Virus record (IMG/VR): IMGVR_UViG_3300012013_001209
Source of the DNA: a virus
DNA: 64,000 nucleotides
Direction: 5' to 3' (one strand)
The notes beneath the pieces are model-generated. The model ran no database searches. It was given only the letters and a program-made list of their open reading frames with translations, and was not told the origin of the DNA. Position numbers and translations under genes: made by a program. Below, in pieces: positions 3,076 to 64,000 of the stretch. How positions within the stretch are numbered: position 1 is the first letter of the stretch; every line of letters starts with the position of its first letter.

Positions 3076-3423
3076 TTACGACGGGAAGAGGATGTTGGAA
3101 CGCGCTGCGAAATAATTGCGCAGCATGGCTTGGTTCATGGCATGAGCCTCCAGCTGACTGCGTGAAGCCAGGGCGTATTTCAGATCGCGCCGGCGGGCCA
3201 CCAGGAACGAGAGATGATTCAGTGCGGAATAGCGGGCATCGGATGAGGCTGTCCTGGCCTCCGTGTTTTTGTCCTCGATGGCTTTGTCCAGTTCGACCAT
3301 GCTCAGCGAAGCGAATTCATCGTAGACTCCAGCCTGTGATTTCTGCTGCGTCAGAAAGTTCGCAATGCTGCGCACGGATTCGTCACGCTCGCTCCTCGTC
3401 AGATCTTTGGTGTCGAGATTCAT
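3076..3423 (-). CDS. Hypothetical helical protein (115 aa)
   Basis: Coupled ORF (overlaps the sigma gene stop) with natural composition. Confidence 0.6.
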   Translation of the reverse strand: MNLDTKDLTRSERDESVRSIANFLTQQKSQAGVYDEFASLSMVELDKAIEDKNTEARTASSDARYSALNHLSFLVARRRDLKYALASRSQLEAHAMNQAMLRNYFAARSNILFPS

Positions 3424-4229
3424 GCTGTGCGTGAGAGGGCGTCCCGGATGTTGTCTATCTTTACCGCCATTCGGGCTGAGCGGCGGGAGAGCTGCACCGG
3501 AGACAGCCCCAGTTTCTGCGCGATCACATTCGGTTCCATCGGCTCGTGCTTGCCGCCATATCCCGTCTTCATTTCGATGATCGCCCTGTCCACCCGATCA
3601 GCATCGCTGTAAACGTAGCCGAGAGCTTCGTCGGAAAAATCCGTTGGCTGTTGATTGGAAAATTGCGTGGCCGCATCCCCGATCGCCGTTTGACTCACGA
3701 CTTTCCGGAACCGATGTCGAACCTCGGAAATTCTTTTGACCGGCATCTTGGCGAAATCCGCCAGCTCCTCGACATCCGGATCACGCTGATGCTTGTCCGT
3801 AAACTCCTGCTCCTTCTTCATGATGTGCAGTGCATCCAGCTGAATACGCTCCGGCACCCGCACCGTGGAACGCTCCATTCGCCGGAATCGCCGGAGAGGC
3901 TGCAATTGCTGGCTGACCCAAGTGGGCATGCCGGCTCCCATATTCGGGTCGTAGGTCCGCACCGCTTTGGTCGCCATGATCTTCGCTTTCACCGCGGTGG
4001 TCGGGTCGTCCGCACTGCCCATGGAACGTAGGACACCATTGATGGCAGGCTGGAGATGTTTGACCGTCGCATGCAGGTGCGTCGGATCCCCTGTCTCCTT
4101 CCACTGCTGGAAAGTGCTCAGGTAAGGTGGCGGCAAATTGACGCTGGCGGGTGGCGGCGGTGTGACAGTCACGGGGGTGAGTCTAGCTGCCTGTTCGCTT
4201 TCGGGCAAGCTCGCGTGCGGTGACCTCAT
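3420..4229 (-). CDS. Phage sigma70-family factor (true start may be GTG at 4172)
   Basis: Region 2 (KAVRTYDPNMGAGMPTWVSQQL..LRRF), region 3 (RVPERIQ...EFTDKHQRDPDVEELADFAKMPVKRISEV), region 4 HTH (IAQKLGLSPVQLSR). Confidence 0.85.
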   Translation of the reverse strand: MRSPHASLPESEQAARLTPVTVTPPPPASVNLPPPYLSTFQQWKETGDPTHLHATVKHLQPAINGVLRSMGSADDPTTAVKAKIMATKAVRTYDPNMGAGMPTWVSQQLQPLRRFRRMERSTVRVPERIQLDALHIMKKEQEFTDKHQRDPDVEELADFAKMPVKRISEVRHRFRKVVSQTAIGDAATQFSNQQPTDFSDEALGYVYSDADRVDRAIIEMKTGYGGKHEPMEPNVIAQKLGLSPVQLSRRSARMAVKIDNIRDALSRTA

Positions 4230-26753: not shown

Positions 26754-27716
26754 TTACGGAGCGATGATGTGCTTGCTCCGCTGAACGGCATTCACGTTCG
26801 GGATCGAAACCCCGATGAATTCGTCGGCATGCATCGTGATCGTGTGCTCCTCGCGCTTGATGTAGGTCTTGATGTCCTGCAAGCGATAGGCACGACCGAG
26901 ATAATCGGGCTCGGCGAATTTGTAGATGACGTTGTCGGGCACGAGTGTCTTCTTGATCGTCGCGATGTGCGGGATGTTGAAGAACTTGTATTCCGTGAGT
27001 GCTTCGAGACCCTCAATGAGGAGGTCCTGACATTTGTCACCGCCGACTTCGTCGCGATACCATTTCAGGAACTCAATTGGGGTTGTTCTGTTCGTACAAA
27101 ACACGGAATTATTCAGGTCGCGGTCGAGCAAATGGCGGAGATTATCCGCGTAATTCGCTCGGCTGATGCGGCCGACAATTTCGAAGTTCTGCTTGACGCC
27201 GGAAGCGCCAACACCGACGGGCGAACCAACGATCTGGTCGAGACCCTTGAACCACTGAACGTCCTCCGCAGTGTGCATGTCTTTGAGCATATTGCCCATG
27301 ACCATTTCACGGAGGTTGTTTTTGTAGGTCGAGAGCTGCCACACGTTCTTCGTGAATTTCCGTGAGGAGATCCGGTAGAAGTTCGTGTCGAAGTAGTCGC
27401 CGCGGTAGAACGCCGTGTCCGCCGAATCATTGTAATTCAGACAGACAGCAGCTTCCTGCTCGGGTTCCATTTCCTCGCGGATATACTGCGACTCGTTGCC
27501 GTTGTACGTGAGGTCCTCGGGCTTGACGTCCTTGAAAGGCTGAACCTTCCGTTGGACGCCCGACTCGCGGATCTTGCGTTTGATGAGACCTTGACCGATG
27601 GCCGACGCGTTCTTGCACATATCGCCAGGCATTGCGTCCTGGAGAGCTGTGAGGAATTCCTGGTCCAGGATTTCCGGCGACATTTCCTGCTGATCAGGAT
27701 TGTTTTTGGTATTCAT
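26754..27716 (-). CDS. Major capsid protein (320 aa)
   Basis: Size, strongly biased codon usage, position after the protease/scaffold/decoration genes, dedicated terminator, K35-N-A37 after a short N-terminal segment. Confidence 0.75.
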   Translation of the reverse strand: MNTKNNPDQQEMSPEILDQEFLTALQDAMPGDMCKNASAIGQGLIKRKIRESGVQRKVQPFKDVKPEDLTYNGNESQYIREEMEPEQEAAVCLNYNDSADTAFYRGDYFDTNFYRISSRKFTKNVWQLSTYKNNLREMVMGNMLKDMHTAEDVQWFKGLDQIVGSPVGVGASGVKQNFEIVGRISRANYADNLRHLLDRDLNNSVFCTNRTTPIEFLKWYRDEVGGDKCQDLLIEGLEALTEYKFFNIPHIATIKKTLVPDNVIYKFAEPDYLGRAYRLQDIKTYIKREEHTITMHADEFIGVSIPNVNAVQRSKHIIAP

Positions 27717-28958: not shown

Positions 28959-30095
28959 TTAGTTTGCGGGTTGGAATACAGAGTTGATCATCGCGATGGC
29001 TGCAGAGGCTTCCTTGGTCGCCTCTGCTTCAGGGTCGCCACCCATCGGAGGAGCGCCACCTTCAGGGCCGCCACCCATCGGAGGAGCGCCACCTTCAGGG
29101 CCGCCGCCACCCTGCTGCAGCGCCGCAGCGAGTTCTTGCAGCATTTTCTCGCCCTCTTCCTGCGGGATCTCCCCGGACTGCACCAGCATCATTATGAGCT
29201 GCGCCAGGTCCTCGGGAGACGGGGTCTGATCTCCACCTTCCGGATCTTCGGGTGCAGGGGCACCTTCAGGGCCTGCTGCTTCGGAATCGGCGTCGGCGTC
29301 GGCCGCACCACCCGCGTAAGCGTCCTTGATCCAGGGATGGTCAGGAAGCTGGGAACGGACCTTCTCGTGAACGGACGCCATCTTGATGATGCGCGCCTGC
29401 TCTTCCGGGGGCTGCGCGTCGAACGCGGCCTTGATGTCGTCGAGATATTGATTTGCGGACTCCTGCTGCGCCGAGGCTGCCTTTTCCATTTCGTCGGCGT
29501 ATTCCACTTCGGTCAGGAATGCTGCGTGACTGTCGAATGCGTTCTTCACGATCGCATTCGCCTCTTCCTGTGCGTGATTCTTGAGAAGGAATTGGCGGGC
29601 GAGTTCAGCGCCGCCTTCAATGGCGAAAATCGAGTGCGCCAGTTTCACAGCGAATGCCGGCGTGATTTCCACATTCGCGTCAGGGCTCGCCGCCGCAGTT
29701 TTCGCTGGTGCGCTCGTCGTAGCCGCGGTCGCCGGATTCGTGAGGTCTGCGAGCAGATTGCGGAAATTCGCTTGGACCGCCGCCAGCTTGTCGCCAGACT
29801 GCGGATGCTCCGAGGCTGACGGAATATCCTCGCCGAGACCTGTGGGGGTGGTGGTCTTGGTAATGACAGAACCCGCTTCCACTCCGCCGTACGCCCTTGG
29901 CTTGCCGTCCTTCGGCATTTGCATGCGGCCGCGGTCGTCGGCGTCACACGCAGGCTGTGCAGCGCCAGCCACGGTATTGGTGGCGTCCGCCCGATCTGCA
30001 TCGGGGGAAGTGACCGCGTGTCCGGCTGCTGCGGATTTGGCGGTGGCGGCTGCGGCGACTTTCTTGAAGAGTTGGTTACGATCGAGGACTTTCAT
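28959..30095 (-). CDS. Scaffold/core-like protein (378 aa)
   Basis: Acidic Ala-rich; KVAA, KSAA, KTAA, KAAS, KMAS, KEAS motifs; located between protease and capsid genes. Confidence 0.55.
   Translation of the reverse strand: MKVLDRNQLFKKVAAAATAKSAAAGHAVTSPDADRADATNTVAGAAQPACDADDRGRMQMPKDGKPRAYGGVEAGSVITKTTTPTGLGEDIPSASEHPQSGDKLAAVQANFRNLLADLTNPATAATTSAPAKTAAASPDANVEITPAFAVKLAHSIFAIEGGAELARQFLLKNHAQEEANAIVKNAFDSHAAFLTEVEYADEMEKAASAQQESANQYLDDIKAAFDAQPPEEQARIIKMASVHEKVRSQLPDHPWIKDAYAGGAADADADSEAAGPEGAPAPEDPEGGDQTPSPEDLAQLIMMLVQSGEIPQEEGEKMLQELAAALQQGGGGPEGGAPPMGGGPEGGAPPMGGDPEAEATKEASAAIAMINSVFQPAN
29037..29102. repeat. Two perfect 33-bp tandem copies (GPEGGAPPMGG)
   Basis: gccacccatcggaggagcgccaccttcagggcc x2. 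Confidence 0.9.
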
Positions 30096-30154: not shown

Positions 30155-31669
30155 TTATTGGTGAAACTGCGAGGACGCGAAAAGAACTTCCATGGGTTCC
30201 GTAATTGGAACTCCATAATCGGACATTGTTTGGAATGCTGCAAGCTTATACATTCCGTAAACTCCTGCCAGGAATTGAGCGCCCTCCTCATCAGGCCCGC
30301 GGAATTCGGAAACAACTTCGGGGTAATTGCCGCGCTCCGTCGAGCCCGATTTGATAATTGTGATGCGGATGACACGCGCCTTCACAGCCTCCGGATCTCC
30401 CGTGTATTTCTGCCCCAATTTCCCCATGAGTTTATTCACAGGATCAGTCACACCAGGATCAACCGAAATGGTCCCGGCCGAGTCGCCCGAGAATACCTGC
30501 GGGTCCATCGCCTGACACGCACAGCCATTCTTCACCAGTTGGCGGAACAGCTGCGGGAGTATTTTCTCCGCCGCGAATTTTACGCACGGATCTGAATTGA
30601 GATCCTTCATCGTCCGCCCGGTGGCGTAAGACAGGAAACTGCGGAAAGGAAGAATGCTCGCAGACTTGGCCATCTTGCCGAAGAACGTCGGAGGCCTGAC
30701 GTGACGGAGTTCGTGAATCTCCTCGTCCGTCAATTCATCCGCCCAATAAAGCGGCGCGATATTCCGGACGAATGCAACCTTCGCATTGTCGCTGGAACTG
30801 TCCACGTTGTCAGATATCCACTGCTCGTGGGCTGCCATCTTCTCCATCATCCGAGTCTGCCACGCGTTCAGTTTGAGATTGTGATGCTCATACTCATCCG
30901 CGCCATAAAACTTCGCCCAGTCGACACCAGTGATGACCGGGCGATTTGCGCTGGCTGCCTTTTTCATGTCCTCATCCGGGAAGGCGTATTCGATGTAGTG
31001 CGCCAGGCGGTCTGCCGGATACCCGACATCGGAAGCATCGAAGTAGGTGGGGTTCGGGTTGTCGACGTAGGCATACTTCTGAAACTCGGGAACCCACTGG
31101 TTCATTTTCTCCGCGGCGTGCTTGCAATAATATTGCGGGCTCGGGGACTTCTGGTTGCAGCAGGAGCACACGTCGAATTTCACACGCGCAGACATGGAAT
31201 TGCTGCGCGCCTCTCCCTTTTTGAGGGACTCGTAAATGTCGTTCGCCTTCTTGATGTTGCCCCAGACGATGAGTTCCACGCGGGCCATCGCCGGATTGTA
31301 GGCCGCATACTTCACGTCACCAATCGAGAGATCCCGACGTTTGTGATTGTGCTCACGATAATACGCACCCTCCGTCACGAACGTCGGGTGCCGCGTGAGG
31401 TTGGCCTGCTTGGACCAGTAATCCCCATTGCGGTTTGCCCCATACGCTTCGCCGTCACCCATGATGATCATGTGCTGCGCGAAATATCCTTTTGGCGGTT
31501 TGAACTCGGAAATGATCTGACGTGTGATCACGTCGGACGACGCCGACTTCACGCGGGAGTCTACATCGAGAAGGAAATTCATGTGGCCGCCACACGCCTT
31601 GAACAGCGCTTCCTGATCGTCCTGCGCGTGACATTTGACCATCCAATCTTGTTCGGTGAGCAGGTTCAT
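30155..31669 (-). CDS. Prohead (capsid maturation) protease with Zn-finger-like segment (504 aa)
   Basis: ANRNGDYW, YREHNH (candidate catalytic His), GDV...AYN, SNSMSA (candidate Ser), followed by DVCSCC...YCKH; located upstream of scaffold/capsid genes. Confidence 0.7.
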   Translation of the reverse strand: MNLLTEQDWMVKCHAQDDQEALFKACGGHMNFLLDVDSRVKSASSDVITRQIISEFKPPKGYFAQHMIIMGDGEAYGANRNGDYWSKQANLTRHPTFVTEGAYYREHNHKRRDLSIGDVKYAAYNPAMARVELIVWGNIKKANDIYESLKKGEARSNSMSARVKFDVCSCCNQKSPSPQYYCKHAAEKMNQWVPEFQKYAYVDNPNPTYFDASDVGYPADRLAHYIEYAFPDEDMKKAASANRPVITGVDWAKFYGADEYEHHNLKLNAWQTRMMEKMAAHEQWISDNVDSSSDNAKVAFVRNIAPLYWADELTDEEIHELRHVRPPTFFGKMAKSASILPFRSFLSYATGRTMKDLNSDPCVKFAAEKILPQLFRQLVKNGCACQAMDPQVFSGDSAGTISVDPGVTDPVNKLMGKLGQKYTGDPEAVKARVIRITIIKSGSTERGNYPEVVSEFRGPDEEGAQFLAGVYGMYKLAAFQTMSDYGVPITEPMEVLFASSQFHQ

Positions 31670-33058: not shown

Positions 33059-33811
33059 TTATTCGCGCGTAGTGGTCCAGCGACCGCGTCCAGTTGTGGA
33101 GATCGCTAATTTTTCGTCTACACCAACCTGAATTGCGTCTTCAATTGCCTGACGCCAGAACTCCGCCTGAGGTTGCGTGTCGGTGTCAGAAGTACCGGCC
33201 CGCACGAAGATCTGCTTGTAGGGGAATTGCGATGGAAAGCGCAATTGATTGCTGGGCAGGACCAACGGGGTGATGGTGGAATCGGTACCGCCATTGAGAT
33301 GCCCGTTGACATTGCTCCAGGCCAGCCCGGAACTGCTCTCCGTCGCGACAACTGAATTGCCGGCAGTGCCTGGCGTAATTGCAGTCACGGTGAGCGCTGG
33401 GTTCACGCCGCCGGTATTCAACGCAGACGTCACACTCTCGTTCACGGTCGTGCCGGCTCCGTAGGTGGTGCCGATGCCAAGGCCACCGGTGAGGGCGGCG
33501 AAAAGATTGTTGGAGGAGATCAATTTTGTCGCCCCCACCAGCACCTGGTCGGCGCCTGAAGTGAGGGCTGCCACGAAATTGTAGGTGCGACCTCCGATCA
33601 CAGTTGAATCGCCCGCGGTGACATTGTTCGTGAAGTTCAGCACGTTGGCCGCGTAGGTTGCGCCGAACAGCCCGCCGAGTTCGATGATGGGCTCACCGAA
33701 CGCGGCGAAGGCCCGCCGTTCGGCTTCGGACAAGGCGTCCTCCTGAGCATCCAGGCCAAGAGTCACGTGATAAGCGAATCCGATAATATCGGTGCGTGAG
33801 GAGATGATCAT
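33059..33811 (-). CDS. Virion protein with an inserted Thr/Gly-rich beta domain (250 aa)
   Basis: Central NVTAGDSTVIGGRTYNFVAAL...LTVTAITPGTAGNSV...LNGGTD segment flanked by unrelated ends. Confidence 0.6.
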   Translation of the reverse strand: MIISSRTDIIGFAYHVTLGLDAQEDALSEAERRAFAAFGEPIIELGGLFGATYAANVLNFTNNVTAGDSTVIGGRTYNFVAALTSGADQVLVGATKLISSNNLFAALTGGLGIGTTYGAGTTVNESVTSALNTGGVNPALTVTAITPGTAGNSVVATESSSGLAWSNVNGHLNGGTDSTITPLVLPSNQLRFPSQFPYKQIFVRAGTSDTDTQPQAEFWRQAIEDAIQVGVDEKLAISTTGRGRWTTTRE

Positions 33812-35304
33812 GTCTGGTAAAGTGCTTCGCGGTTTTCGCGCACGAATGTCTCAGCCTGGGCCTTGTTCTTGTGGATCTCGGCCAGGGTCTTCGAGGTTTG
33901 CGCAGGAATGCCACCGTAAGTGAGAGCTTCGCGCAGTGCGAAACGAAGTCGGTTTGGATCGTGCCCGATGGTGGGATCGGACTGCTGCAAATCATTGAAC
34001 AGTCCGACCAGCTTCTCCGGCTCGGCCTCAGACAGAATCGGGTCGGTGAGCATCATGCGTTGCAAATTCGTCACCTTTTGCACGTCGTGCACGCCCTGGT
34101 CGATTTTCCGCTGCCGGACGCCCGGAGACAAATGATTACCGAGCAGACTCTTCAACAGGCCCGGCTCACGCGGACCTGTCATGTGGTCCACGACTTCTGC
34201 AGGGCCTGGCACCTTTGCCGCCAGGTTGCCGATCGCTGTGCCGATCGCGGCAATCACGTCGGTTTTATTCTCCGGCTTCTTCCCTTTTCCTCCTGCGCCA
34301 GCGCCGCCCAGATATTCCACAGAGGCATCACCTTTTGCAGGGGCCTTCGGCTTGCCGCCGGGCTGCCCTCCGGCTCGCGGCGCTGTGGGCTGAGCTTCCT
34401 GCCGCGCACCCGGACCGGTCATTTTCTGCTCAGTGTTTTTTTTTCCATCAGAATCACGCGTGCTCGGCGTGTCCTGATCGACAGGCATGTTCGGCATGGC
34501 GGACTTCAACATTTCCTGACAGGTGTCGAGCATGTGCAGGCAGTCCGCAGCCTGTTCAACATCCGTATTCATGCCAGTGCGGTCCTCCACGAGAAACCTT
34601 GGGGCCGCTGCGTATTTCGCAATCACCTGATCCAAATCACGGGTGAATTGCTTGGTGGCGTCGTAGCCGGAGATTTGTTTCCGCACGTGCGCCATTACCC
34701 GAGGCACAGTGGCCGAGGCTGATTTGCTGAGATCGCAGAACAGTGCTGGAATCAATTCCGGATTGTCCATCAGCCGATCCTTGATGATGGACGCCTTCTT
34801 TGCGAAGTCCTCCACCAGGTCGTCCCGGATTCCGCGCAGGGTGTCGAAATTCAGAGTCTCCACGTAACGGTCATTCACCGCATGACCATTGCGCTCACCG
34901 AGGGTGGATTCGCGGGGATTCTCAGGGGCGTCCGAAAATGCCATCTTCACCGCGGGAGCCTCGTCCCGGAAGAAATTGGGGACATTCGCGCGCACCTTGA
35001 TTGCGCTGGCAGGAGTCGCGGCCGATGCGACTTTCACGGTGGCCGTCTTCGCTGCCGGCGTGGTGTAATCTTCCTTCAGCTTCTCGGTGTCGATCAATGG
35101 GACGGTGGCGCCGCGCGCGTTGGGATTATTCTCCATCCACGAGAGGGAGCGGCACGTATTCAGGGTCCAAGCCATTTTCACGAGCTGAGCAGGCGCGAGG
35201 TTGTGTTCGCGCGCATACTCGAGCAGGATGGGTTCAGCCTTGCCCGCGGATTTGATTCGCGGCAGCAGATTCTGAATTGTGGTGAGAACTTGGGCCGGTG
35301 ACAT
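33808..35304 (-). CDS. Putative head core protein with many K-x-A motifs (498 aa)
   Basis: KSAG, KTAT, KVAS, KKAS, KSAS, KYAA, KSAM. Confidence 0.65.
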   Translation of the reverse strand: MSPAQVLTTIQNLLPRIKSAGKAEPILLEYAREHNLAPAQLVKMAWTLNTCRSLSWMENNPNARGATVPLIDTEKLKEDYTTPAAKTATVKVASAATPASAIKVRANVPNFFRDEAPAVKMAFSDAPENPRESTLGERNGHAVNDRYVETLNFDTLRGIRDDLVEDFAKKASIIKDRLMDNPELIPALFCDLSKSASATVPRVMAHVRKQISGYDATKQFTRDLDQVIAKYAAAPRFLVEDRTGMNTDVEQAADCLHMLDTCQEMLKSAMPNMPVDQDTPSTRDSDGKKNTEQKMTGPGARQEAQPTAPRAGGQPGGKPKAPAKGDASVEYLGGAGAGGKGKKPENKTDVIAAIGTAIGNLAAKVPGPAEVVDHMTGPREPGLLKSLLGNHLSPGVRQRKIDQGVHDVQKVTNLQRMMLTDPILSEAEPEKLVGLFNDLQQSDPTIGHDPNRLRFALREALTYGGIPAQTSKTLAEIHKNKAQAETFVRENREALYQT

Positions 35305-40555: not shown

Positions 40556-42249
40556 TGTCCAAGGTAGGCGTTGAGCACTTTTGCGCTTTTCGGGGGATGG
40601 TTAAACATCATATTTGAAGCCGGCGTGGCCTTGGGTTTTGGCATGTTGTTGTAGCCGTGAATTGCTCCTGAGGCTGCTCCTGTGGCTCCTCCGAGCAGCC
40701 GTGCCAGGAATTTTGCCTTCAGGTCTCCTCCGGCCAACGCAGCCAGACCGTGGCCACCCATCATTCCAAGAATTCCACCGCCAGTAGCGTTTAATCCAGT
40801 ATTCAAACCGCGCAGCGCCCCTTGACCTGCACCTTGACCGCTGGGCAATACAGCGCCGCCGAGTGCGCCGAGCAAAGGATATGCAGTCAGCGCGGCTGTC
40901 GTAGCACCAGGAAGCGCGTATGATAGATGTCCGGCAAGACCTTTTGTCACGGACGGCATCGATTCACCCATAGCCTTGAATAAGGCGTCACCCACACCGG
41001 CGCGCTTCACACCACCCATCGGTGCGCGGCGCTGCGAAGCCGCATACTGCGAGGGCGACATGGTATTCTGACTGTCCAGCCGCGACGACCGCGCCCCTCC
41101 TCTGGCTGCCTGGGCCGCCATCATCTGCTGCATGCTCGCCACATCGCCCTTGCTGTTCGGATTGAAACGCGACTTGGTGGCGACCTGGAAATCGCGCATA
41201 GCTTGTGCCGACGGCTGCTGCGGACGTGCTTGCACGGTCGCCTGAGGGATGCTCGGCGGGACGGCCCTGGTCGGTTCCGGCGCTGAAATATCCATGGGCG
41301 GCGGAGTCGCGAACGTGAGACCGGGGGCGGACTGCACAGGCCTCTCCGAAGCCATCGACATCTGCGCTGGAGGAGCCGGAGGCAGATACGAGTCGGAATT
41401 AAGCGGGGCAGGGGCGGCGATGGCGCTCTCAGGCCTCTCCGAAGCCATCGACATCTGCGCTGGAGGAGCCGGAGGCAGATACGAGTCGGAATTAAGCGGG
41501 GCAGGGGCGGCGATGGCGCTCTCAGGCTTCTGCATCTGCTGACTGGTAGCAAGATTCTCGGGATTCGTGCTATCATCCAGACCTTGCAACGAGCGTTCAT
41601 CGACAGGCCCCTGCATGGGGGGTGGGGCTTGCGGGGCAGACTCAGGAACCACAGCATCCCCCATATTACCGGGGAGATGAGCGCCCTGCAAATTGTCAAG
41701 CGCGGGCACATTAGAAAGACCGTAGGTGTTCGACGGAGGGCGCGCAGGCTCCGGAGTGGTCAGGCCGCGAGTGGTCTGATTCCAGGCTGGGTTCGCGGTC
41801 TGAGGCGTGATGCCTTGCGTGTTCCAGCCCTGCACAGGACCCGTATTCGGGTTCAGCTGGATACGTCCGGGCTGGGCGGGCTCGCCGACACCGCCGCCGT
41901 AATCGGCTTTGGGGCTGATACCTGGAATCGCAGCGGCGGGTGGCTTTCCAATCCCGCCGTTGAATGCTGGTCCCATTGACTGGTCTGATCCGCTATTGAG
42001 AGCGCCAACGCTGCCCGCACCAAGTCCACCCGCGGCGATTGCCGTCGCTGGACCTCCCAATTTATTGATTACTTTCGGTACCGTCGGAGGAATTTTGCCG
42101 ATGCTTGGAATGGCTTTGACGGCGGGTCGCAGAGATTGCATGCCGCGGAGTGCGAGCTGGCCGGTGCGTGCGAGGGCCTGACCGTAGCCCGATTTGATCA
42201 TTTCTTTGGCGGACAGGATGTGAAAAGACAGAGCAGTAGTGGAACGCAT
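40552..42249 (-). CDS. Leader-bearing Pro/Gln-rich and glycine-zipper cargo protein
   Basis: MRSTTALSFHILSAKEMIKSG leader (ATG 42249); low-complexity middle; KRAG before the C-terminal GxxxG helices. Confidence 0.7.
   Translation of the reverse strand: MRSTTALSFHILSAKEMIKSGYGQALARTGQLALRGMQSLRPAVKAIPSIGKIPPTVPKVINKLGGPATAIAAGGLGAGSVGALNSGSDQSMGPAFNGGIGKPPAAAIPGISPKADYGGGVGEPAQPGRIQLNPNTGPVQGWNTQGITPQTANPAWNQTTRGLTTPEPARPPSNTYGLSNVPALDNLQGAHLPGNMGDAVVPESAPQAPPPMQGPVDERSLQGLDDSTNPENLATSQQMQKPESAIAAPAPLNSDSYLPPAPPAQMSMASERPESAIAAPAPLNSDSYLPPAPPAQMSMASERPVQSAPGLTFATPPPMDISAPEPTRAVPPSIPQATVQARPQQPSAQAMRDFQVATKSRFNPNSKGDVASMQQMMAAQAARGGARSSRLDSQNTMSPSQYAASQRRAPMGGVKRAGVGDALFKAMGESMPSVTKGLAGHLSYALPGATTAALTAYPLLGALGGAVLPSGQGAGQGALRGLNTGLNATGGGILGMMGGHGLAALAGGDLKAKFLARLLGGATGAASGAIHGYNNMPKPKATPASNMMFNHPPKSAKVLNAYLGQ
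41338..41527. repeat. Perfect 93-bp tandem duplication (31 aa)
   Basis: Units start at 41338 and 41431 and appear identical (RPESAIAAPAPLNSDSYLPPAPPAQMSMASE). Confidence 0.95.
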
Positions 42250-42303
42250 AAGTTTGGATTCTGAACGATTTTTGAAATTAAGCAAGACTCAAGGATTTGA
42301 AAA

Positions 42304-42504
42304 TCACACGGCTCTGCCGTTGGGCCGCTTTTCACTCTCCGCTCGAAAGGCTTCTCTCAGCTCGTCTGCGGTGCATACACCTTTTGCGACTAGCACGCGA
42401 TTCATCGCGGAGATGGAGAATTTGAGTAACTCAACCGCGCCCTCTCTCCGCTCGATGTTTTTCGCCAGCGAACGGCCCTTGTGGGAGTTTGGAGGCGTTT
42501 TCAC
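42304..42504 (-). CDS. Small hypothetical protein (66 aa)
   Basis: ATGA overlap with the upstream gene; helical RVLVAKGVCTADEL segment. Confidence 0.55.
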   Translation of the reverse strand: MKTPPNSHKGRSLAKNIERREGAVELLKFSISAMNRVLVAKGVCTADELREAFRAESEKRPNGRAV

Positions 42505-43886
42505 GGGCAGCCTCCCAGCTGTGCGATATCCATCAGCGCGAACGCCAAATATCGCGCAGCTGCCGACTTGAGCAGACGCTCACCGTTCGGTCCAAGGAAG
42601 TCACTGTATTCCGGCTCCGGCACTGCACCAGGGATCTTCACTTTACGAAACGGAATATTCAAATCACCATTTACCGCGGACTCCGCCGGCAACGGAATTT
42701 TATTCCCTCCCGGCCCCAATATCCTGCTGAAATTAATGCCGGACAAGTTGCCAGCCGCGCCAGCCGTCGGAGGGACTTCCGGAGCCGTCGGAGCCGCGTT
42801 CATCAGACGATTCAATGCCTCGTTGACCGCAGCAGGTTCTCCCCCGCGCAGTTTCTTGTCGCCCATCAGAAGTTTGTTCACACCAGGCCCCATGTTCCCC
42901 GGATGAATGATCAAACTCTTGGCAGCATCCGACGAGATGGCCGGCGCCGCGACCGGCATTGGCAGTTTGCCTTTCAATTTCACCGGGCTTGTGAACATGT
43001 TCACGAAGGCGCGTCCAAAGCTTCCGAGCGAATCAATTTTCTCGTGCGGGTGCAGGCCAAAATCCCAGTTGTCCTCGAAGGTGCCGTCCGGCTTCACATG
43101 GAAATTACCGGGAACTCCACGGGATGACACCAATTGGGATCCGTCTGCATTTCCTTTGGGAATTTCACCTGTGTGAATATCGGTCATCGGCTGTCTGATA
43201 TCCCGAACCATCGACTTCAGCTCGCTCTGCGCCTCCCGACTCTTCGGGTTGTAATGCAGGACTCCTTTTTCAGTCGGATCTGCCGTGAAGAATTTACGGA
43301 ACGCCCGCGGCTTCAAACCGAATCCCATGCGGTAGGGAACCTCACGTGCCGAATATGGTCCGCGTGTGGTGACCTCATTGGGAAACTTCGCGGCCTCGTA
43401 AATCGGCTTGTCCTTCACGACGGCCTTGATCATGTCCATGATCTTGTAGCCCTTCAACTTCTTGATTTTTTCCGCCGTCTCGTAACTCCGAGGCTCCACC
43501 AGATTCGTCAAAATCCGACCCATTCCCCTCTGCGCCATTCCAGGCGCGAACCGCCCAAATAATCCACCACCAACAGCGCCGCCGAGCGCGCCCTTCATCT
43601 TGTGTCCCTTGTCGGCATTGAGGCCGCCGATGCCTGCGCCGATGGTTGCGCCGCCGGCCACGTTCTTCAGGCGGTTCGCAGGGTCCACGAAATTGTAGGA
43701 CATTACCTTGCGCAGCAGTTCTTCCTTTTTTCCACCGCCGGAATTGAGCCACCCGAATATGTCGAGGCCTTTGCCTAAAGCACCCTCGGCCGCAGGCAAC
43801 GCGTGACCGAGGACCTTTGCGGCTGCCGCGTTGGCATTCTTCTCGAAATCAATTGCCGCGAAGGCGATGGCAGTGGACGGGTGCAT
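42501..43886 (-). CDS. Leader-bearing cargo protein with an unassigned globular domain (461 aa)
   Basis: MHPSTAIAFAAIDFEKNA leader; glycine zipper; central domain ending GNFHVKPDGTFEDNWDF; KSA near the C-terminus. Confidence 0.7.
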   Translation of the reverse strand: MHPSTAIAFAAIDFEKNANAAAAKVLGHALPAAEGALGKGLDIFGWLNSGGGKKEELLRKVMSYNFVDPANRLKNVAGGATIGAGIGGLNADKGHKMKGALGGAVGGGLFGRFAPGMAQRGMGRILTNLVEPRSYETAEKIKKLKGYKIMDMIKAVVKDKPIYEAAKFPNEVTTRGPYSAREVPYRMGFGLKPRAFRKFFTADPTEKGVLHYNPKSREAQSELKSMVRDIRQPMTDIHTGEIPKGNADGSQLVSSRGVPGNFHVKPDGTFEDNWDFGLHPHEKIDSLGSFGRAFVNMFTSPVKLKGKLPMPVAAPAISSDAAKSLIIHPGNMGPGVNKLLMGDKKLRGGEPAAVNEALNRLMNAAPTAPEVPPTAGAAGNLSGINFSRILGPGGNKIPLPAESAVNGDLNIPFRKVKIPGAVPEPEYSDFLGPNGERLLKSAAARYLAFALMDIAQLGGCP

Positions 43887-45727
43887 TAGAATTTTCCGGT
43901 TTTTCTCACATTCTTTCCGAAGCCGACGCCGATCATCAGTCTCGGCGCGAAGTTGACGTTGCTCTCCACATTCGTATCGAGCCCTCTGGTTGCTGAATTG
44001 AGCAAATTTTTCGACTGGTAGCTGGACGTCAGCTGCTGCGCCCAGTCCTCAGTATTGTGGGAAGCCGTGCGAAGCCGGCTCATCTCCGGTTCGAATCCAG
44101 GAGCTTCTTCGGAAACTGGAACGGAATCAAATCCATGCGTCTCCATGTGCTTCGCCATTCGGGGAGTCAGCTTCGTCCCGATCGTGTAATGCAACGCTGG
44201 CCCGTGCAAATATTGCCCCACCGCGGAACTCGGCTTCATCAGCTTGGCGGAAGCCGGCGGTGTGTAATTGTGAGCGAGCACATTGTAGCTGACCACATCA
44301 TCCGGCAAATAATCACCCAAACCCTCAGGGTCCGTAATCCGCACATGATCGATTGCTCCGCGAGCAATCATCTCCGTGTGCTTCATGTCCGTCTTCACGC
44401 CGGAGTCGTCCAGGATTTGCTTCAGCCTCTTCGCGTAGTATCGCCGACCCTCACCCAATCCGCGCAGCCTGACCATGTCCCGAGGATCCACGATGCCGTC
44501 GGCCAACTGATCCCCTGCTTCCACTTCCTGCCCTGGCTTCACTGACACCTCGTAGCCTGGCAACGCGTAATGGTCTTCTTCCTCCACACGGATAATTTTC
44601 CCACCCTGGGGCGCATCCCGAATATCCCGAACCAACCCGCTGATCTCCGACACAGGGGCGCGATCGGGGAACGACTCGGGTGATTGGACGAATTGTTCGA
44701 TCGCGCTGAGCCCAGAGAATACTTTTTTGGACCCAGTCATTCCTGCCGTGTGTTTTTCGCGCAAGGATCCCTGCGTGACCGGTTCGGAACTTGCATGAGC
44801 GGAGACGAGGCCGACCATGTCGCCAAGATTCGGCAACCTTCCACCTCTGCGTGCGCCAGCGGATTCCGCAGATATTCCTTCGGCCGAATTATCTGTGAGT
44901 GGCGAATGCACCAACACTGACGCCACCTTCTGCTTTTTCAGACTGGCCAACACGCGCCCATCAATCATGGTCCCGGCAGGCCAGCCGCCAGCCGCGCGTG
45001 CCATGAACCGATACTTCAACGAGTCATCTTCCACGTCCAGATCGATGCCGTTGGTGTGTCCTGTTGCTCTGCTGGTGACAACGAGTGGGGAAGTGATCTG
45101 TACCAATTGTTTTCCCAAATCGCCGCCGCGCGCTGTTCCCGCTTTCGTGGAATAAACCGCCGCACGCGCTCCAAAGGTAGAGGCGAGGAATTCCATCGGA
45201 CGCAATCCTTCGCTGTGGGAGTTTCGGACGAACATCGGAATGGTGCGACCCTGTCCGTCTGCATAAACACCCGGAGTGGTGAGCATGGATTTCATCTGGG
45301 CGGCGGAACCGCGCGCGCCAGACACCACAGACATCGCCACGTTATTCCCCTGCGTCACTCCCGCCTTCAATGTGTCTTTCTCGAGCTGACCGGAAAATCG
45401 TTTCCAGATGGCCTCCCTGCGTGCCCGATACTCTTCACGGTTGGGGGATTCTTTTTTCGCGAGAGCTACCTCCCCGTCCATTTCCGCAAAAACCTTGGCC
45501 TTGTCGATCAGCGGGCGCAGATCATTCATGGTGATCGTCTCGCCCTGACGCCAGGAGGCTTCACGACCGTGCCTGGCCAGCTTGTCGATGATCGGGGCGT
45601 AATGCTCCGGATAGCGATGCCCCACGTCCGCGAGGATATCATTGATCGCCCCCGCGTTGTAGGTGCGCCCGTAATTGCGCATGTCCTCGGGAAGTTCGGA
45701 CTCCAAGAGCAGATGGACTGCTTTCAT
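43886..45727 (-). CDS. rpoC: Phage RNA polymerase beta' subunit, C-terminal part (613 aa)
   Basis: SGARGSAAQM; EGLRPMEFLASTFGARAAVYSTKAGTARGGDLGKQL (bridge helix); GDMVGLVSAHASSEPVTQGSLREKH (trigger loop); C-terminal RLMIGVG. Confidence 0.93.
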   Translation of the reverse strand: MKAVHLLLESELPEDMRNYGRTYNAGAINDILADVGHRYPEHYAPIIDKLARHGREASWRQGETITMNDLRPLIDKAKVFAEMDGEVALAKKESPNREEYRARREAIWKRFSGQLEKDTLKAGVTQGNNVAMSVVSGARGSAAQMKSMLTTPGVYADGQGRTIPMFVRNSHSEGLRPMEFLASTFGARAAVYSTKAGTARGGDLGKQLVQITSPLVVTSRATGHTNGIDLDVEDDSLKYRFMARAAGGWPAGTMIDGRVLASLKKQKVASVLVHSPLTDNSAEGISAESAGARRGGRLPNLGDMVGLVSAHASSEPVTQGSLREKHTAGMTGSKKVFSGLSAIEQFVQSPESFPDRAPVSEISGLVRDIRDAPQGGKIIRVEEEDHYALPGYEVSVKPGQEVEAGDQLADGIVDPRDMVRLRGLGEGRRYYAKRLKQILDDSGVKTDMKHTEMIARGAIDHVRITDPEGLGDYLPDDVVSYNVLAHNYTPPASAKLMKPSSAVGQYLHGPALHYTIGTKLTPRMAKHMETHGFDSVPVSEEAPGFEPEMSRLRTASHNTEDWAQQLTSSYQSKNLLNSATRGLDTNVESNVNFAPRLMIGVGFGKNVRKTGKF

Positions 45728-59468: not shown

Positions 59469-60032
59469 TTACACCTTCTCAGCCTCGTCCACCGGAACGT
59501 CGGCGATCTCCACGTCTCCGGGAGTTTCAGCCGGAGCCTCGTCCAGAACAGTCGGAGCTTCATCCGGAGCCTCGTCCAGAGCAGCCGGGGCCGGAAGAGT
59601 TTTCTCTTCGGGGTCTCCGCCATTGATCAAAGCCGAGACAACCTTCACATTTGCCACCACGACTTCGGTGGTTTCGTCGGCGTGCATGGTGACGACCTCC
59701 GCGGGTTCGGCAGGCACGGTGATCGGCGTCTCGGGATGATTGGAAATATCCTGGATGAGTTCCACCGCTGCGTGATCCAGTGCTGCGACCTGATCGTGGA
59801 GTGCCGTGCGAAGCTTCGCCGCGGCTTTCTGGCGGGCGTCAGCCGTCTTCAGACGGTCGGCGATATTCACGCCTTGCGCGACTGTGGTGGATTCTGCCTG
59901 CTGCAGTCGCATCACTTCGACATCGCTTTGGTTGGAAGTCGCCGCATCGAGCGAGGCCAGGAGCCCTTTGATCATTTCGCGGTAGTTGACGATGACGGCG
60001 TAGGAACGGATGACAAGTGTGGAGATATTCAT
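59469..60032 (-). CDS. Acidic helical hypothetical protein (187 aa)
   Basis: Coiled-coil N-terminal half, Asp/Glu/Pro-rich tail. Confidence 0.65.
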   Translation of the reverse strand: MNISTLVIRSYAVIVNYREMIKGLLASLDAATSNQSDVEVMRLQQAESTTVAQGVNIADRLKTADARQKAAAKLRTALHDQVAALDHAAVELIQDISNHPETPITVPAEPAEVVTMHADETTEVVVANVKVVSALINGGDPEEKTLPAPAALDEAPDEAPTVLDEAPAETPGDVEIADVPVDEAEKV

Positions 60033-60042
60033 GGTGCGGAGG

Positions 60043-60070
60043 ATATTACGGCAATTGGCGAGTTTGACAA
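60043..60070 (-). promoter_or_regulatory. Putative sigma70-like promoter
   Basis: TTGTCA-N16-TAATAT immediately after the beta' polyprotein stop. Confidence 0.5.
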
Positions 60071-60071
60071 A

Positions 60072-63000
60072 CTATTTCACGACAGGAGGCAGCCCCTGAG
60101 TTTTCATCTCCATTTCCTCACTGCCCGGAAATACGATCGAGTCATGCAATGGCACCGTCCCTTTGCGCACCGCAGCCAAGGCCTCGGCATGTGAAGGGAA
60201 ATTCCAGACCTTGACGGATGCCCGCGCCCCCGCGTTGTGTAATGACAGCAACGACTCATGTTTGATCGTCGGCATTACCTTGTCCTGGTCCCGAATTGTG
60301 AACAGCATTTTCGATGGCATCAAGATGTCGCGGGTTTCCTTCAGAACCTCTTCGGAAGTCGGCGCGTGCACGTTAATAGCGTCCCCGTCGAAATCGGCGT
60401 TTAAGCCAGCTGTAACATAAGGGTTGATTTGAATTGTATTCCCATCAAACAGTTTCGGCATCGCCCCCAACGTCGAGAACTGATGCCACGCCGGAGCCCG
60501 CGAATACTGCACCGGATGATTCGGCACCACATCTTCCAATGCCCTCTTCGCATGGTCATCCCGATCACGCAGCGACAATGCCGCATCCGCCGGGGAAAAT
60601 CCCTTCTTCACCAAATGCCGATGCAACTTCGTGTCGAATATATCCCACGCCATCTCCCGCGGAATGCCAATCTCATCAAGCCCGAGATCGGGATTGATGG
60701 TGATCGTGGCTCGCCCGACATTGTCCACTGGCTTGGAGAGGAGACGTCGCTGAGCGTAACCAAATTTCGGCGAGCTGCCGGTGATCTGTTCGAAGAAGCC
60801 TGTAACGCCGCGCGCGCGGGCCTTGTCGTTGACGGGCTCGCCGAATCCATAAACGGCGCGCACTGCGTTGTAGAGATTGTGTGCGGCCTCGCCTTCACCT
60901 TCAGGACCCAATTCACGTTTCGCCTCGTCATAAACTTTCCGGTTGGTGAACAGGTCTCGATACAGTTCGTTGGCGTTGCCTGGAATGAATGAGGAGCCGG
61001 CCAAGGAATATGGGCGGAATGCTGCGGGGATGACGGGGACGTGGTTGATCATCAATTCCCGTGGGTGCAATTCATTCCGGCGCATCCCCTCGACAATATT
61101 CAGGATCTTCACTGCCTGATCACGCTTGGACACTTTGCCGGATTTTACGAGCGCGTGGTTCTGCGCTTCGAGATCGTCGAGGTTGATGCGACCCAGATGA
61201 TATGCGAGGGCCTCAGGGCCGGTGGTTGGAATTGCCTTTGCTACGGCGGCCTCTTTCTCATGCTGCGAGTCCATCAATTCATGAATGGCTGCGAGTTGCA
61301 GGAATCGGTGTCGGAGCATTCCGCCATCGGAATCGTGTTCAGGGTGTGCGATCTGGTCCTGCAAATGCGCCACCGCTTTCGAAATCGGAATACGCATGCT
61401 GCCAGTCAATTCATCACCCTCCTTCGACGTCGGCTTGCCACTCGATTTCAACCACCCCGAGAATACATGCCGGCGGCTGCCCTGGAATTTGGCATACTTC
61501 TCCGGCTTGTGCTGTTCCATGTCGGGATGCCAGATGATCTGCGAATGCCCATGCCCAGTCATCCCGTGACCGGTGACGCCTGCCTCTTCCATCATCTCAC
61601 GTTCCAGGCCCTGCTGAATGCTTTCGCCCTCATCAATGCCGCCGCCGGGGAATTTGAGGAATTTCTTCCCACCATGCCCTTCAGCCAATATTCCCACCAG
61701 GTCGTCTCCATCACGCAGAATGACCTCGGCAGACTCCCGGAATGGCAGCTTGTCCCGCGAGGGCACATTTACCGGACGCACGGAAGCAACCTTGTGCATC
61801 AAGGCATTCACCAGTTTGGCTGTGCCTCTGCCGGCCGTCGCCAACATCGCGGACATCGCCGTATTGAACCCCGCCGCGTTCCAGTAGGTCTTCCGGAAAT
61901 TCCCGATGATCGGATCTGCCGTGCTAATATTTCCAGCTGAGTCCGCATGATATTCTCCGGCGATGGTGGGGATGAACCCGGTCGCCGTACCTCCGCCGGT
62001 GAGTGCAGGGGCCAACAGGGGTGACCGCTTGTGAAGCAGGGCGCCGAGTGGCATGGCGAGGAGTTGGGACCATCCGGACAGGGCTTGACCAGGGCTGCGG
62101 AGTTTGTGAGCCCAGTCATGGTCCCACATTTTGGAGTGACCCATTTCGTGACGCATCACGGATTCGTTGTTGAATTCGGGGCGTGGGTCGTAGCCGATCA
62201 AGCCGTGGGCTTTCGCCAGCGCGTGAATGTCGGGGGAGAGACCTTCAATGGGTTGGTCCTGTTGAAAATTCTCCTTCGGCACGAACATGGCATTCCGCAG
62301 GCCGGGGATCGGGATGATCGGCATTTTCGGATTAGGCTTCAATTCCTCGCGGAGTTTGTCCCATTGGTCAGCGGCGTGTTTGACGATCTCGGGTGTGAGG
62401 AATTCGTCGGCGTCGGTCACGGTTTCCGCCTGGGAGATGGCGGCAGCTTCCTCCGGTGACATCTGATGCCCGGCCAAGGCGAAAGCCTTTTGAATCTTTT
62501 CCGGCTTGGCGTAATTGCTTCCGCCGCTGAGATGGTCCACGGAGAATGGAATATTCTGATCTCCGAATATTTTCTTCCAGCGTTCGATACGGTCGTAGAA
62601 TTTCTTGATCTGCGCATTCGCGCCGAGCACCGGGAGATTCAACCCTGTGCGCTGCGCAATCAGCATCTGGGCGGCGTAGGCGGAATCCCCCAACTCCTCT
62701 TTCAAATTCTCCCAATCCAGATTCTTGATGGCTTCACCCACCTCACCCAATTCGCCGGTGAGATAGCTGACCGGATAATTGCGGCCGCCCATGATGTCGC
62801 GGGTGAGATCTTTGCTCCAATGCAATGCCGACTTCTCCCAATCTTCATCGGGATCGTGGCCGGCCTTGTCCAAATGTTTCCGGACTTTGGCGAGCACTGC
62901 CTGTTCCGGCGAAAGCCCTGCAGATTTCTCCGCGTCCGGAAACTCCAGGAACTCCGGATCGATTTTCCCGTGCGGAGTAATGACATGCGCGTGCGGTACG

Positions 63001-64000
63001 TTGCCAGAGTATGTCTTGCCCTCGGGATCGTTGTAGTGCTGCCACATCTCCTTCGGATTCTTCGCGCGCTGAATGAGTGCGGAAATCTCCTTGGGAGTCA
63101 GATCATGATGACGCACCCGCACGTGCTTGTCCTTTTCCTCTTCGGACATCGTGTCGTATTTCTCGTTGAACGGCACCAGCTCCGCCCCATGCAATTTCGT
63201 GCCCGGATGTTTGACCAGCAATTGCGCGAGACGAATGCGAACCGGCACGGACTTGAAACGCTTCGTCGGATGTTTGTCATGCAGCTTCCCCTCATCCGGC
63301 GGCCCGAACATTGCGCTGGGACCGGAGTACGAAGTATTCCATGGTTTGTCCTTCAATGCCTGCGCGCGTCGTGCCAGCCATCCCTCTGCGCCGCCACCGT
63401 CATCAGCGGAGCGTGCCAGGTTGAGGAGATGCCGATTCTCCGGCTTCGCCAATTCATTCCCGCTCAGCAGTCCGTGTTTGCGAATTGCCTCCAGTGCGGG
63501 TTCGGGCACGTAGGAAATCAAATGCTCCGGCTCTGACTGCAATTTCGCCGGCGGGATCTCCGTCCGCGGAATGTGCATCCGGAAGCCCGTGGGTCGGTGC
63601 GTAATTCCCACGACGTGCGAACTCTCCTCAGAAGGCTCCACATCGAATTCATCCCCATGCGAAACCATGAGGCCGCGAATAATGCCAGCCTTGGTTTTGT
63701 AATCACCGCGATCTGAATGCTCCTTGGCGATTTTCAATTCCTGAAGGAGCGAGGCATTCTTTTCCGTTTCGTCGTCAGCCTCATCCGGAATAATTTCCGT
63801 GAACCGCATATCCGCAAATGCAGTCTTCACCGCCTCCTGCAATGACAGCGGCTCTCCATAGAATGTGTGGAAGGCAGATGATTTCTGGTCAGCGGCGAAG
63901 CGTGCCTGAAGTTCCTGTATAGCGACTGGAGACCAGCCTTGCTGGGCGGCGGCGGACTTCGACGCATCCTCCAAATCCTCCTGATCCTTCGCCGTCCATT
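60072..64000 (-). CDS. rpoC: Polyprotein (>1300 aa, 5' end beyond window): ART-like + MazG-like + HExxH/membrane + Nudix + RNAP beta' catalytic part
   Basis: NADFDGD at 60381-60401; RAPAWH; KPVDNVGRATI; VPVIPAAFRP; Nudix box at 61578-61643; HEMGH at 62136-62150; MazG-like ELGEVGEAI...LKEELGD. Frame stays open upstream of 63974 (WTAKDQED). Confidence 0.92.
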   Translation of the reverse strand, partial: WTAKDQEDLEDASKSAAAQQGWSPVAIQELQARFAADQKSSAFHTFYGEPLSLQEAVKTAFADMRFTEIIPDEADDETEKNASLLQELKIAKEHSDRGDYKTKAGIIRGLMVSHGDEFDVEPSEESSHVVGITHRPTGFRMHIPRTEIPPAKLQSEPEHLISYVPEPALEAIRKHGLLSGNELAKPENRHLLNLARSADDGGGAEGWLARRAQALKDKPWNTSYSGPSAMFGPPDEGKLHDKHPTKRFKSVPVRIRLAQLLVKHPGTKLHGAELVPFNEKYDTMSEEEKDKHVRVRHHDLTPKEISALIQRAKNPKEMWQHYNDPEGKTYSGNVPHAHVITPHGKIDPEFLEFPDAEKSAGLSPEQAVLAKVRKHLDKAGHDPDEDWEKSALHWSKDLTRDIMGGRNYPVSYLTGELGEVGEAIKNLDWENLKEELGDSAYAAQMLIAQRTGLNLPVLGANAQIKKFYDRIERWKKIFGDQNIPFSVDHLSGGSNYAKPEKIQKAFALAGHQMSPEEAAAISQAETVTDADEFLTPEIVKHAADQWDKLREELKPNPKMPIIPIPGLRNAMFVPKENFQQDQPIEGLSPDIHALAKAHGLIGYDPRPEFNNESVMRHEMGHSKMWDHDWAHKLRSPGQALSGWSQLLAMPLGALLHKRSPLLAPALTGGGTATGFIPTIAGEYHADSAGNISTADPIIGNFRKTYWNAAGFNTAMSAMLATAGRGTAKLVNALMHKVASVRPVNVPSRDKLPFRESAEVILRDGDDLVGILAEGHGGKKFLKFPGGGIDEGESIQQGLEREMMEEAGVTGHGMTGHGHSQIIWHPDMEQHKPEKYAKFQGSRRHVFSGWLKSSGKPTSKEGDELTGSMRIPISKAVAHLQDQIAHPEHDSDGGMLRHRFLQLAAIHELMDSQHEKEAAVAKAIPTTGPEALAYHLGRINLDDLEAQNHALVKSGKVSKRDQAVKILNIVEGMRRNELHPRELMINHVPVIPAAFRPYSLAGSSFIPGNANELYRDLFTNRKVYDEAKRELGPEGEGEAAHNLYNAVRAVYGFGEPVNDKARARGVTGFFEQITGSSPKFGYAQRRLLSKPVDNVGRATITINPDLGLDEIGIPREMAWDIFDTKLHRHLVKKGFSPADAALSLRDRDDHAKRALEDVVPNHPVQYSRAPAWHQFSTLGAMPKLFDGNTIQINPYVTAGLNADFDGDAINVHAPTSEEVLKETRDILMPSKMLFTIRDQDKVMPTIKHESLLSLHNAGARASVKVWNFPSHAEALAAVRKGTVPLHDSIVFPGSEEMEMKTQGLPPVVK

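Follow-up and report, generated by a model that had tools for sequence, protein, structure and literature searches.

At one end of the 64,000-nt stretch of viral DNA analysed here (the window; IMG/VR virus record IMGVR_UViG_3300012013_001209), a single open reading frame (ORF) occupies positions 60072..63998 on the minus strand. It runs for 1308 codons, its 5ʹ end lies beyond the window edge, and the genes around it, all on the minus strand, are part of a phage virion gene block. A first-pass annotation, made from the DNA letters only, described the product as a polyprotein: a chain of unrelated domains ahead of a fragment of about 390 amino acids (aa) of the RNA polymerase (RNAP) β' subunit, with a K-x-A motif at each boundary, packaged in the head and cut by the prohead protease. 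Pfam matches, fold comparisons and the translation agree that one ORF chains these unrelated domains. From N- to C-terminus, its parts are an adaptor, a DarT/Tpt1-like ART fold, MazG, an HExxH module, Nudix and a 387-aa part of β', here called β'N:

60072..63998, minus strand: polyprotein ORF, at least 1308 aa, with its N-terminus outside the window
63549..63749, minus strand: "adaptor" domain, helical/beta, residues 84-150
62928..63539, minus strand: predicted ART-superfamily domain with a DarT/Tpt1-like fold, residues 154-357
62409..62831, minus strand: MazG-type nucleotide pyrophosphohydrolase domain, residues 390-530
61794..62369, minus strand: HExxH zincin-like module with Gly/Ala-rich hydrophobic segments, residues 544-735
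61257..61781, minus strand: Nudix hydrolase domain with an intact Nudix box, residues 740-914
60075..61244, minus strand: β'N, a minimal clamp and the catalytic double-psi beta-barrel with NADFDGD

The nearest relative, P0002, is a complete ORF of 1759 aa that opens with an InPase domain (PF18823, E 1.7e-55) and includes a segment of family-I pyrophosphatase. Judged by homology to P0002, the window edge probably cuts off about 477 N-terminal residues, comprising InPase and a Gly/Ala-rich region. The first-pass annotation had asked whether β is encoded in the same ORF; with the complete P0002 ORF as a guide, it is not.

Pfam matches were judged against curated gathering cut-offs. β'N matches Rpb1 domain 2 (residues 1155-1227, 69.7 bits against a cut-off of 25.3) and, weakly, Rpb1 domain 1 (residues 964-1016). 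NADFDGD is intact, and the C-terminus lies 108 aa past DFDGD, as in the closest relatives; the corresponding distance in intein-free family members is 92-109 aa. Nudix is matched at residues 756-874 (36.1 bits, cut-off 21.1), and the translation contains the Nudix box as G-x5-E-x7-R-E-x2-E-E-x-G. MazG is matched at residues 411-439 (25.4 bits, cut-off 22), and residues 389-456 superpose on MazG proteins (2yxh, Z 7.4) with the all-alpha NTP-pyrophosphohydrolase fold. In the HExxH module the motif reads HEMGH (residues 617-621), and the membrane helices that had been proposed beside it are Gly/Ala-rich hydrophobic stretches.

The ART-like part was recovered by fold only, with no Pfam match and no PDB match by single sequence or by a 34-sequence profile. 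Residues 154-360 superpose on DarT (7omw, Z 8.5, rmsd 3.9, 148 aa aligned; 7omu, Z 8.4, Foldseek probability 1.00) and on Tpt1/KptA (Z 7.0), and His, Glu, Arg, Tyr and His columns are invariant in an alignment of module homologues. These values support an ART fold for residues 154-357, in a Z range that is safe for fold-level kinship only. With this qualification, all four enzyme modules named by the first-pass annotation (ART-like, MazG-like, HExxH and Nudix) are present. An AlphaFold model of the cargo (residues 1-921, from a 66-row alignment) has confident blocks at residues 80-355 and 390-530, separated by a low-confidence spacer of 27 aa between KSAG and KSAL.

These last two motifs belong to a series of K-x-A motifs along the chain, six of which had been listed before, with coordinates that are all correct:

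63948..63959, minus strand: KSAA, residues 14-17
63750..63761, minus strand: KNAS, residues 80-83
62916..62927, minus strand: KSAG, residues 358-361, at the C-terminal end of the predicted ART domain
62823..62834, minus strand: KSAL, residues 389-392, at the start of MazG homology
62370..62381, minus strand: KHAA, residues 540-543
61782..61793, minus strand: KVAS, residues 736-739, at the C-terminal end of the HExxH module
61245..61256, minus strand: KEAA, residues 915-918, 8 residues before TGPEA, the start of β'N

We derived module limits without reference to the motif, from a full-database search with residues 1-921 (857 hits). ART matches end at residues 353-362, around KSAG (358-361); MazG matches begin at residues 389-393, at KSAL (389-392); and the Nudix match spans residues 741-912, between KVAS (736) and KEAA (915). 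Structural alignments give the same ART and MazG limits as the database hits. For the HExxH module, an alignment of seven members with 18-47% identity has an invariant H, E and H, one Gly, three Pro and one Trp, and in the closing K-x-A-S both K and A are likewise invariant.

The coupling of motif and module limit is also seen along relatives of the polyprotein. Database searches brought together at least 26 members of one family, ranging from 834 to 2087 aa, in which β'N is always last, the N-terminal extension varies, and inteins are sometimes inserted in β'. Cargo domains in the family include HAD-like, InPase, pyrophosphatase, Nudix, MazG, ART, acetyltransferase and LysM. K-x-A-(A/S/G), or K-x-G-S in one case, stands 5-30 residues upstream of TGPEA in about 22 of the 26 relatives, within a linker that is otherwise unconserved; β' identity to the relatives, two near-identical ones aside, is 43-70%. 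Four unfused β'N members start no more than 13 residues from the same point of the linker.

Close relatives of the window show the same coupling at finer resolution. Three sequences, namely the window, L001 (168.8-kb JGI contig) and L002 (ENA contig), have 93-94% DNA identity in their common parts and differ in cargo, and identity among them breaks exactly at KSAA (residue 14), KNAS (80) and KSAG (358). The three are alike from KNAS on and unlike upstream of it. Identity with P0002 reaches KSAA and is then immediately lost, and homology to L001 begins 13 residues upstream of KHAA. In L001, a HAD module stands directly behind K-S-A-S; in other family members the HAD module opens the protein. 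The ART module is missing at the corresponding place in L002 and is widespread elsewhere, stand-alone or embedded, and the adaptor domain recurs in relatives, at the N-terminus or behind K-x-A sites. Hence, across the window, L001, L002 and the family of at least 26 relatives, cargo is exchanged while boundaries and β' stay fixed, a point on which the first-pass annotation had proposed comparing homologues. Near-identical DNA is found in freshwater and lake metagenomes from several studies, and contigs assembled from other lakes depart from the window sequence at 61235, 61255 (KEAA) and 63954 (KSAA). These comparisons indicate that the phage population is mosaic, with breakpoints at motifs.

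Contigs from other lakes also span 61452-63060, 62715-63650 and 59693-61235, and the long ORF is not an assembly chimera, since these contigs cover stretches of it. The Nudix-β'N joint is uninterrupted in two independent assemblies (L001 and L002). Gene calling splits the L001 locus into three, two halves of 998 aa and 1008 aa with a 213-aa gene between them, because that gene has been inserted.

It is the comparison between relatives, and not the single protein, that gives the motif its significance. Bare K-x-A occurs 11 times in the polyprotein against 9.1 expected; since this is not a significant enrichment, we dropped the count as stand-alone evidence. The longer form K-x-A-[ASG] occurs 6 times against 2.1 expected. 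In the cargo of the 26 relatives, K-x-A-[ASG] was seen 106 times against 30.5 expected from shuffling, and in the β' parts of the same proteins it is depleted (8 against 20.5). The depletion in β' suggests that the motif is under present selection. In 20 less redundant proteins, K-x-A comes top of all 400 X-x-Y pairs (160 against 98.6, z 6.8). K.A[ASG] occurs 83 times, whereas the reversed pattern is found 23 times and related ones 14-46 times; none of the control patterns, E-x-A[ASG] included, is enriched. We considered, and rejected, an artefact of composition in which Ala/Lys-rich helical linkers of the EAAAK type generate the motif. Local Ala/Lys richness is not the cause, because K.A[ASG] far exceeds the reversed and related patterns, which are 2-6 times rarer, and single K and A columns are invariant amid variable surroundings.

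The DarT-like and MazG modules also occur in hundreds of other proteins (P0182-P0327), some stand-alone (134-260 aa), others built into giants that reach 2577 aa and mostly lack β'. Among these proteins, too, K-x-A-[ASG] is overrepresented about twofold (339 against 163).

The same motif recurs in head-module proteins of the window. These, and a second part of β', are encoded as follows:

30155..31669, minus strand: predicted prohead protease, a gp21/assemblin-fold domain followed by a helical scaffold-like domain, 504 aa
26754..27716, minus strand: major capsid protein, 320 aa, with K35-N-A-S
43886..45727, minus strand: β'C, the second half of β', 613 aa, with Rpb1 domains 4 and 5

PHROGs and Pfam gave no match for the protease, the capsid protein or most head genes. 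The protease model (mean pLDDT 74.9) consists of a beta-rich domain and then a helical domain. Its N-terminal domain, at about residues 29-218, aligns with T4 gp21 (5jbl_B; Z 10.4, rmsd 3.2, 136 of 164 residues; Foldseek probability 0.98) and with herpesvirus proteases (Z 6-8). By its modelled fold the product is a prohead protease of the gp21/assemblin type, which bears out the first-pass assignment of this gene. Among 59 homologues, a 26-sequence alignment has invariant K41, A43, H66, H107 and S158, and a near-invariant MKKAAS-type site lies just behind the catalytic domain. In the model, the K41 and K236/237 sites fall in segments with pLDDT <50 that flank the catalytic domain. A further conserved site lies about 30 residues from the C-terminus. 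The helical half (residues 264-504) carries conserved K-x-A at about 277, 335, 364 and 475.

K-x-A-[ASG] occurs 9 times in the protease against 0.82 expected, 7 times in the product of 28959..30095 (1.29 expected) and 5 times in that of 33808..35304 (0.98 expected). In the tail and baseplate genes of the window, it is at or under expectation. The genes at 28959..30095 and 33808..35304, both on the minus strand, have no database matches; from their motif content, their products are candidate scaffold or internal-core proteins that would be cut into small pieces. A language-model score of 0.98 likens the product of 26754..27716 to major capsid proteins. About 50 capsid homologues from related viral contigs, down to 23% identity, have K-x-A at position 25-37, and the residues before it vary. 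Conservation of one motif in capsid, protease and scaffold-like proteins points to a universal head protease.

A leader of about 20 aa is common to four otherwise unrelated head-module ORFs on the minus strand (36280-37041, 39431-40555, 40552-42285 and 42501-43886). Its pattern, M-x-x-S-T-A-[IL]-A-F-H-[IL]-L ... [IV]-K-S-[AG], ends in a K-x-A-type motif, and the leader may be a capsid-targeting sequence.

One PHROG profile of 1216 positions is matched by the polyprotein ORF at 167-541 and by the product of 43886..45727 at 619-1098. The two products thus represent successive parts of one profile, and β' is split over two genes, 14 kb apart. The best PHROG for the polyprotein ORF itself is an unannotated family. 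A sigma70-like gene lies amid baseplate genes at 3420..4229 on the minus strand (Sigma70_r3, 27 bits, cut-off 25.3).

Among cultured phages, Salmonella phage Arash has the nearest relative of β'N (34.6% identity by tblastn). Arash Gp206 has 1525 aa, a beta-like part followed by β'N, and its gene adjoins the portal gene. When virions were analysed by mass spectrometry, no protein yielded more spectra than Gp206 (3516); Gp216, which is annotated as an RNA polymerase subunit, yielded 1210, and a sigma factor was detected as well (PMC10585845). By analogy with Arash, a virion location of the polyprotein is supported indirectly. The gp206 gene (L003:2590-7167, plus strand) is annotated only as "beta subunit"; its product begins M-P-K-S-A-S, with K-x-A-S at residues 3-6.

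Taken with the position of the motif, its conservation and its depletion in β', these data are consistent with proteolytic release of the modules. We consider it probable that a K-x-A-delimited polyprotein is packaged and cut by the prohead protease, and that its modules are released along with a virion RNAP. We infer packaging, cleavage and the exact bond, ejection and the role of each enzyme. In outline, a large freshwater tailed phage would encode a polyprotein with interchangeable cargo enzymes and with β'N always last. The polyprotein would be made late, with the virion proteins, and built into the prohead, where the gp21/assemblin-type protease encoded at 30155..31669 would cut at exposed K-x-A-(S/A/G) sites, probably after Ala by analogy with assemblin. 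The freed β'N would join β'C, a β encoded outside the window and possibly sigma in a virion RNA polymerase, and the polymerase and released enzymes would enter the host with the DNA. A broader proposal, which we put forward tentatively and regard as an arguable possibility, is that K-x-A-(S/A/G) is the code of an Ala-cutting gp21/assemblin-type protease in a plug-and-play cargo system whose modules are swapped by recombination at the sites. Any enzyme placed between two K-x-A sites upstream of the β'N anchor would then be packaged, released and injected.

Several observations weigh against packaging and cleavage as proposed. Both processes are inferred, for this phage and its close relatives alike. 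The motif is not at every joint: one internal boundary, the adaptor/ART joint (about residue 152), lacks K-x-A. The six motifs first listed were picked from 11. Between two and four of the 26 relatives have no motif upstream of β'N (P0026 and P0032, in which β'N follows a beta-like part, and arguably P0016 and P0029), and three more have none anywhere in the cargo. In the AlphaFold model of the cargo, KSAA, KNAS and KHAA fall in predicted helices, and residues 540-921 are uninformative on KHAA, KVAS and KEAA, with low confidence because the alignment holds few homologues; for these three motifs, limits were taken from module alignments instead. Two K-x-A-[ASG] matches in the protease lie inside the folded core of its model; hence, not every match can be a site. 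The N-terminus of P0002 lacks the leader of other head-module genes, and no β gene was found within the 64-kb window. With regard to Arash, Gp206 carries β and not enzyme cargo, and the virion list comprises 116 proteins, including ribonucleotide reductases (PMC10585845), such that contamination or carry-over is possible.

Could the protein act without being cut at the motifs? In the strongest alternative to the packaged and processed polyprotein, which we nonetheless regard as unlikely, it is an uncleaved polyvalent virion protein, and K-x-A-(S/A/G) is a linker or a docking element for scaffold or protease, left uncut or cut in few places. Full-length transfer has been reported for some polyvalent proteins (PMC5512222), the virion RNAP β subunit of SPN3US keeps a long N-terminal region (PMC5694885), and several motifs are predicted to be helical. 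However, the motif is depleted inside β', lies at disordered sites on either side of the protease's own catalytic domain, and precedes the mature part of the capsid protein. This pattern of depletion, flanking and capsid position is typical of cleavage sites and not of docking sites.

An alternative function for the fused enzymes, which we think rather improbable, is in the cytoplasm: the RNAP would stay there, the fused hydrolases would work in cis, on nucleotide pools or on transcripts (removing 5ʹ pyrophosphate or clearing pyrophosphate, for instance), and the motifs would be relics of fused leader peptides. Enzymes of pyrophosphate bonds do dominate the cargo (InPase, pyrophosphatase, MazG and Nudix, with HAD in relatives) and could plausibly serve transcription, and only one β' set, and a single RNAP set, was seen within the window. 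On the other hand, cargo differs even among relatives as close as L001 and L002, which is unlike an obligate cis partner. The polyprotein gene is placed among virion genes, Arash virions contain the homologue in abundance, and the motif appears to be under current selection.

Processing might also occur without the prohead protease, through the embedded HExxH zincin (by autoproteolysis in the head or after ejection) or through a host protease. The HExxH residues are invariant across the module family, and Iyer et al. proposed autoprocessing by metallopeptidase domains (PMC5512222). Nine K-x-A-rich relatives have no HExxH in their cargo, which rules out the embedded HExxH as the general processing enzyme, and the same motif is conserved in the capsid, protease and scaffold-like proteins of the lineage; we consider this alternative very improbable. 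Chance or an assembly artefact, that is, separate genes joined and motifs cherry-picked from Ala/Lys-rich sequence, is largely excluded: the bare K-x-A count and the three-gene call in L001 would fit it, but the same joints occur in independent assemblies and contigs, the fused layout is common to at least 26 relatives, the L001 split is due to the inserted gene, and unbiased statistics pick out K-x-A.

How does the packaged, protease-cut polyprotein compare with known systems? The first-pass annotation knew of no description of such an architecture, and this is correct only in part. Polyvalent proteins of phages and conjugative elements combine unrelated effector domains, are predicted to be packaged and injected, and have been proposed to be processed (Iyer et al. 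2017, PMC5512222; also PMC9503650). InPase was defined in that work and linked there to NUDIX (PMC5512222). The polyprotein likewise has many unrelated effector domains in one polypeptide and a gene beside head genes. Polyvalent proteins have 2-15 unrelated domains; the window ORF has 5 and P0002 at least 7. Their effector repertoire is represented by InPase (in P0002), the predicted ART fold and the HExxH module, the latter a candidate counterpart of their MPTase family. In contrast, the RNAP example among polyvalent proteins is of the single-subunit N4 type, whereas here it is half of a multisubunit β'; the joints here carry a conserved K-x-A-(S/A/G), common to capsid, protease and scaffold-like proteins; and the peptidase is embedded there, whereas a prohead protease is predicted here.

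The virion RNAPs of phiKZ, 201phi2-1 and SPN3US are also multisubunit, with β' in separate genes. They are packaged in the head and ejected, steps that we propose here too. In 201phi2-1, a 275-residue N-terminal propeptide of virion RNAP β is removed by the prohead protease (PMC5694885). Nonetheless, the first-pass comparison with phiKZ-like phages does not carry over: no phiKZ-type phage is among the 33 tblastn hits, and judging from these hits the phage is not phiKZ-like. Nor does the window contain more than one β' set, where phiKZ-like phages have a second, non-virion RNAP. The phage also differs in having a sigma70-like factor, in carrying a chain of enzymes where phiKZ-like phages have a propeptide, and in its motif, K-x-A as opposed to (S/A/G)-x-E or A-x-E.

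The model of Glu-ending sites taken from T4 and phiKZ must likewise be replaced. The phage members of the gp21 type that have been studied (T4, phiKZ and SPN3US) cut after Glu, with A-x-E in SPN3US (PMC10052503), whereas the motif enriched here is K-x-A-(S/A/G), and cleavage is more likely to follow Ala, as in herpes assemblin. Assemblin cuts after Ala, and the predicted cuts of pseudorabies pUL26 are YLQA-T and VQA-S (PMC4498786). The layout of herpes pUL26 is also the same: a protease, a site behind it, a scaffold-like tail and a site near the C-terminus (PMC4498786). The predicted P1 Ala and P1ʹ Ser/Ala resemble herpes x-x-A↓S/T sites. T4 Alt and the internal proteins include host-modifying enzymes, an ART among them, that are packaged in the head, where a short motif marks the point at which the prohead protease trims them. 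These are encoded in separate small genes with their own leaders of 10-20 aa, whereas here the enzymes are concatenated, with internal sites. We know of no description of a P3 Lys requirement in phage gp21-type or herpes proteases. Finally, Arash Gp206 also has β'N at its C-terminus, and both RNAP halves are abundant in virions, but its N-terminal part is β itself, with no enzyme cargo, and no processing was reported (PMC10585845).

The general idea of processed polyvalent virion proteins is, therefore, already known (PMC5512222), as is propeptide removal from a virion RNAP (PMC5694885). As far as the searched literature shows, three elements are new: the fixed place of a multisubunit β' half at the end of such a protein; a defined K-x-A joint signal common to capsid, protease and scaffold-like proteins; and, by analogy with assemblin, a phage protease of the gp21/assemblin fold that is predicted to cut after Ala and to have Lys at P3.

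What would be the significance of cleavage at these sites? Should cutting occur there, a dsDNA phage would be using a true polyprotein strategy for its injected proteome, in which an RNAP subunit is the fixed anchor. Cutting would also mean a new, herpesvirus-like substrate specificity in the gp21/assemblin family, bearing on the shared ancestry of capsid maturation in phages and herpesviruses, and it would provide a simple sequence rule for predicting packaged proteins and their mature ends in an uncultured, widespread freshwater phage lineage. The cargo (a DarT-like ART, MazG, Nudix, two pyrophosphatases and HAD) suggests that nucleotide pools of the host, or defence signals based on nucleotides, are attacked early. 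In capsid design, a defined motif with such tolerance of module exchange could also guide the loading of foreign proteins.

Intein and LAGLIDADG domains (PF14528 and PF14890) are inserted near DFDGD in β'N of P0012, P0013, P0018, P0020-P0025 and P0027-P0030, and are also found in some prohead-protease homologues (P0160, P0173 and P0177). The ORF inserted in L001 (9367-10008, plus strand) encodes a Cys-rich protein of 213 aa with only a sub-threshold match to the I-TevI DNA-binding domain, and is possibly a homing endonuclease of the free-standing kind; the adaptor domain opens the downstream half of the split L001 gene. About 8 kb upstream of the polyprotein gene in L001, the ORF L001:1169-2536 (plus strand) has a precomputed AcrVA2-like Pfam match (PF26125).

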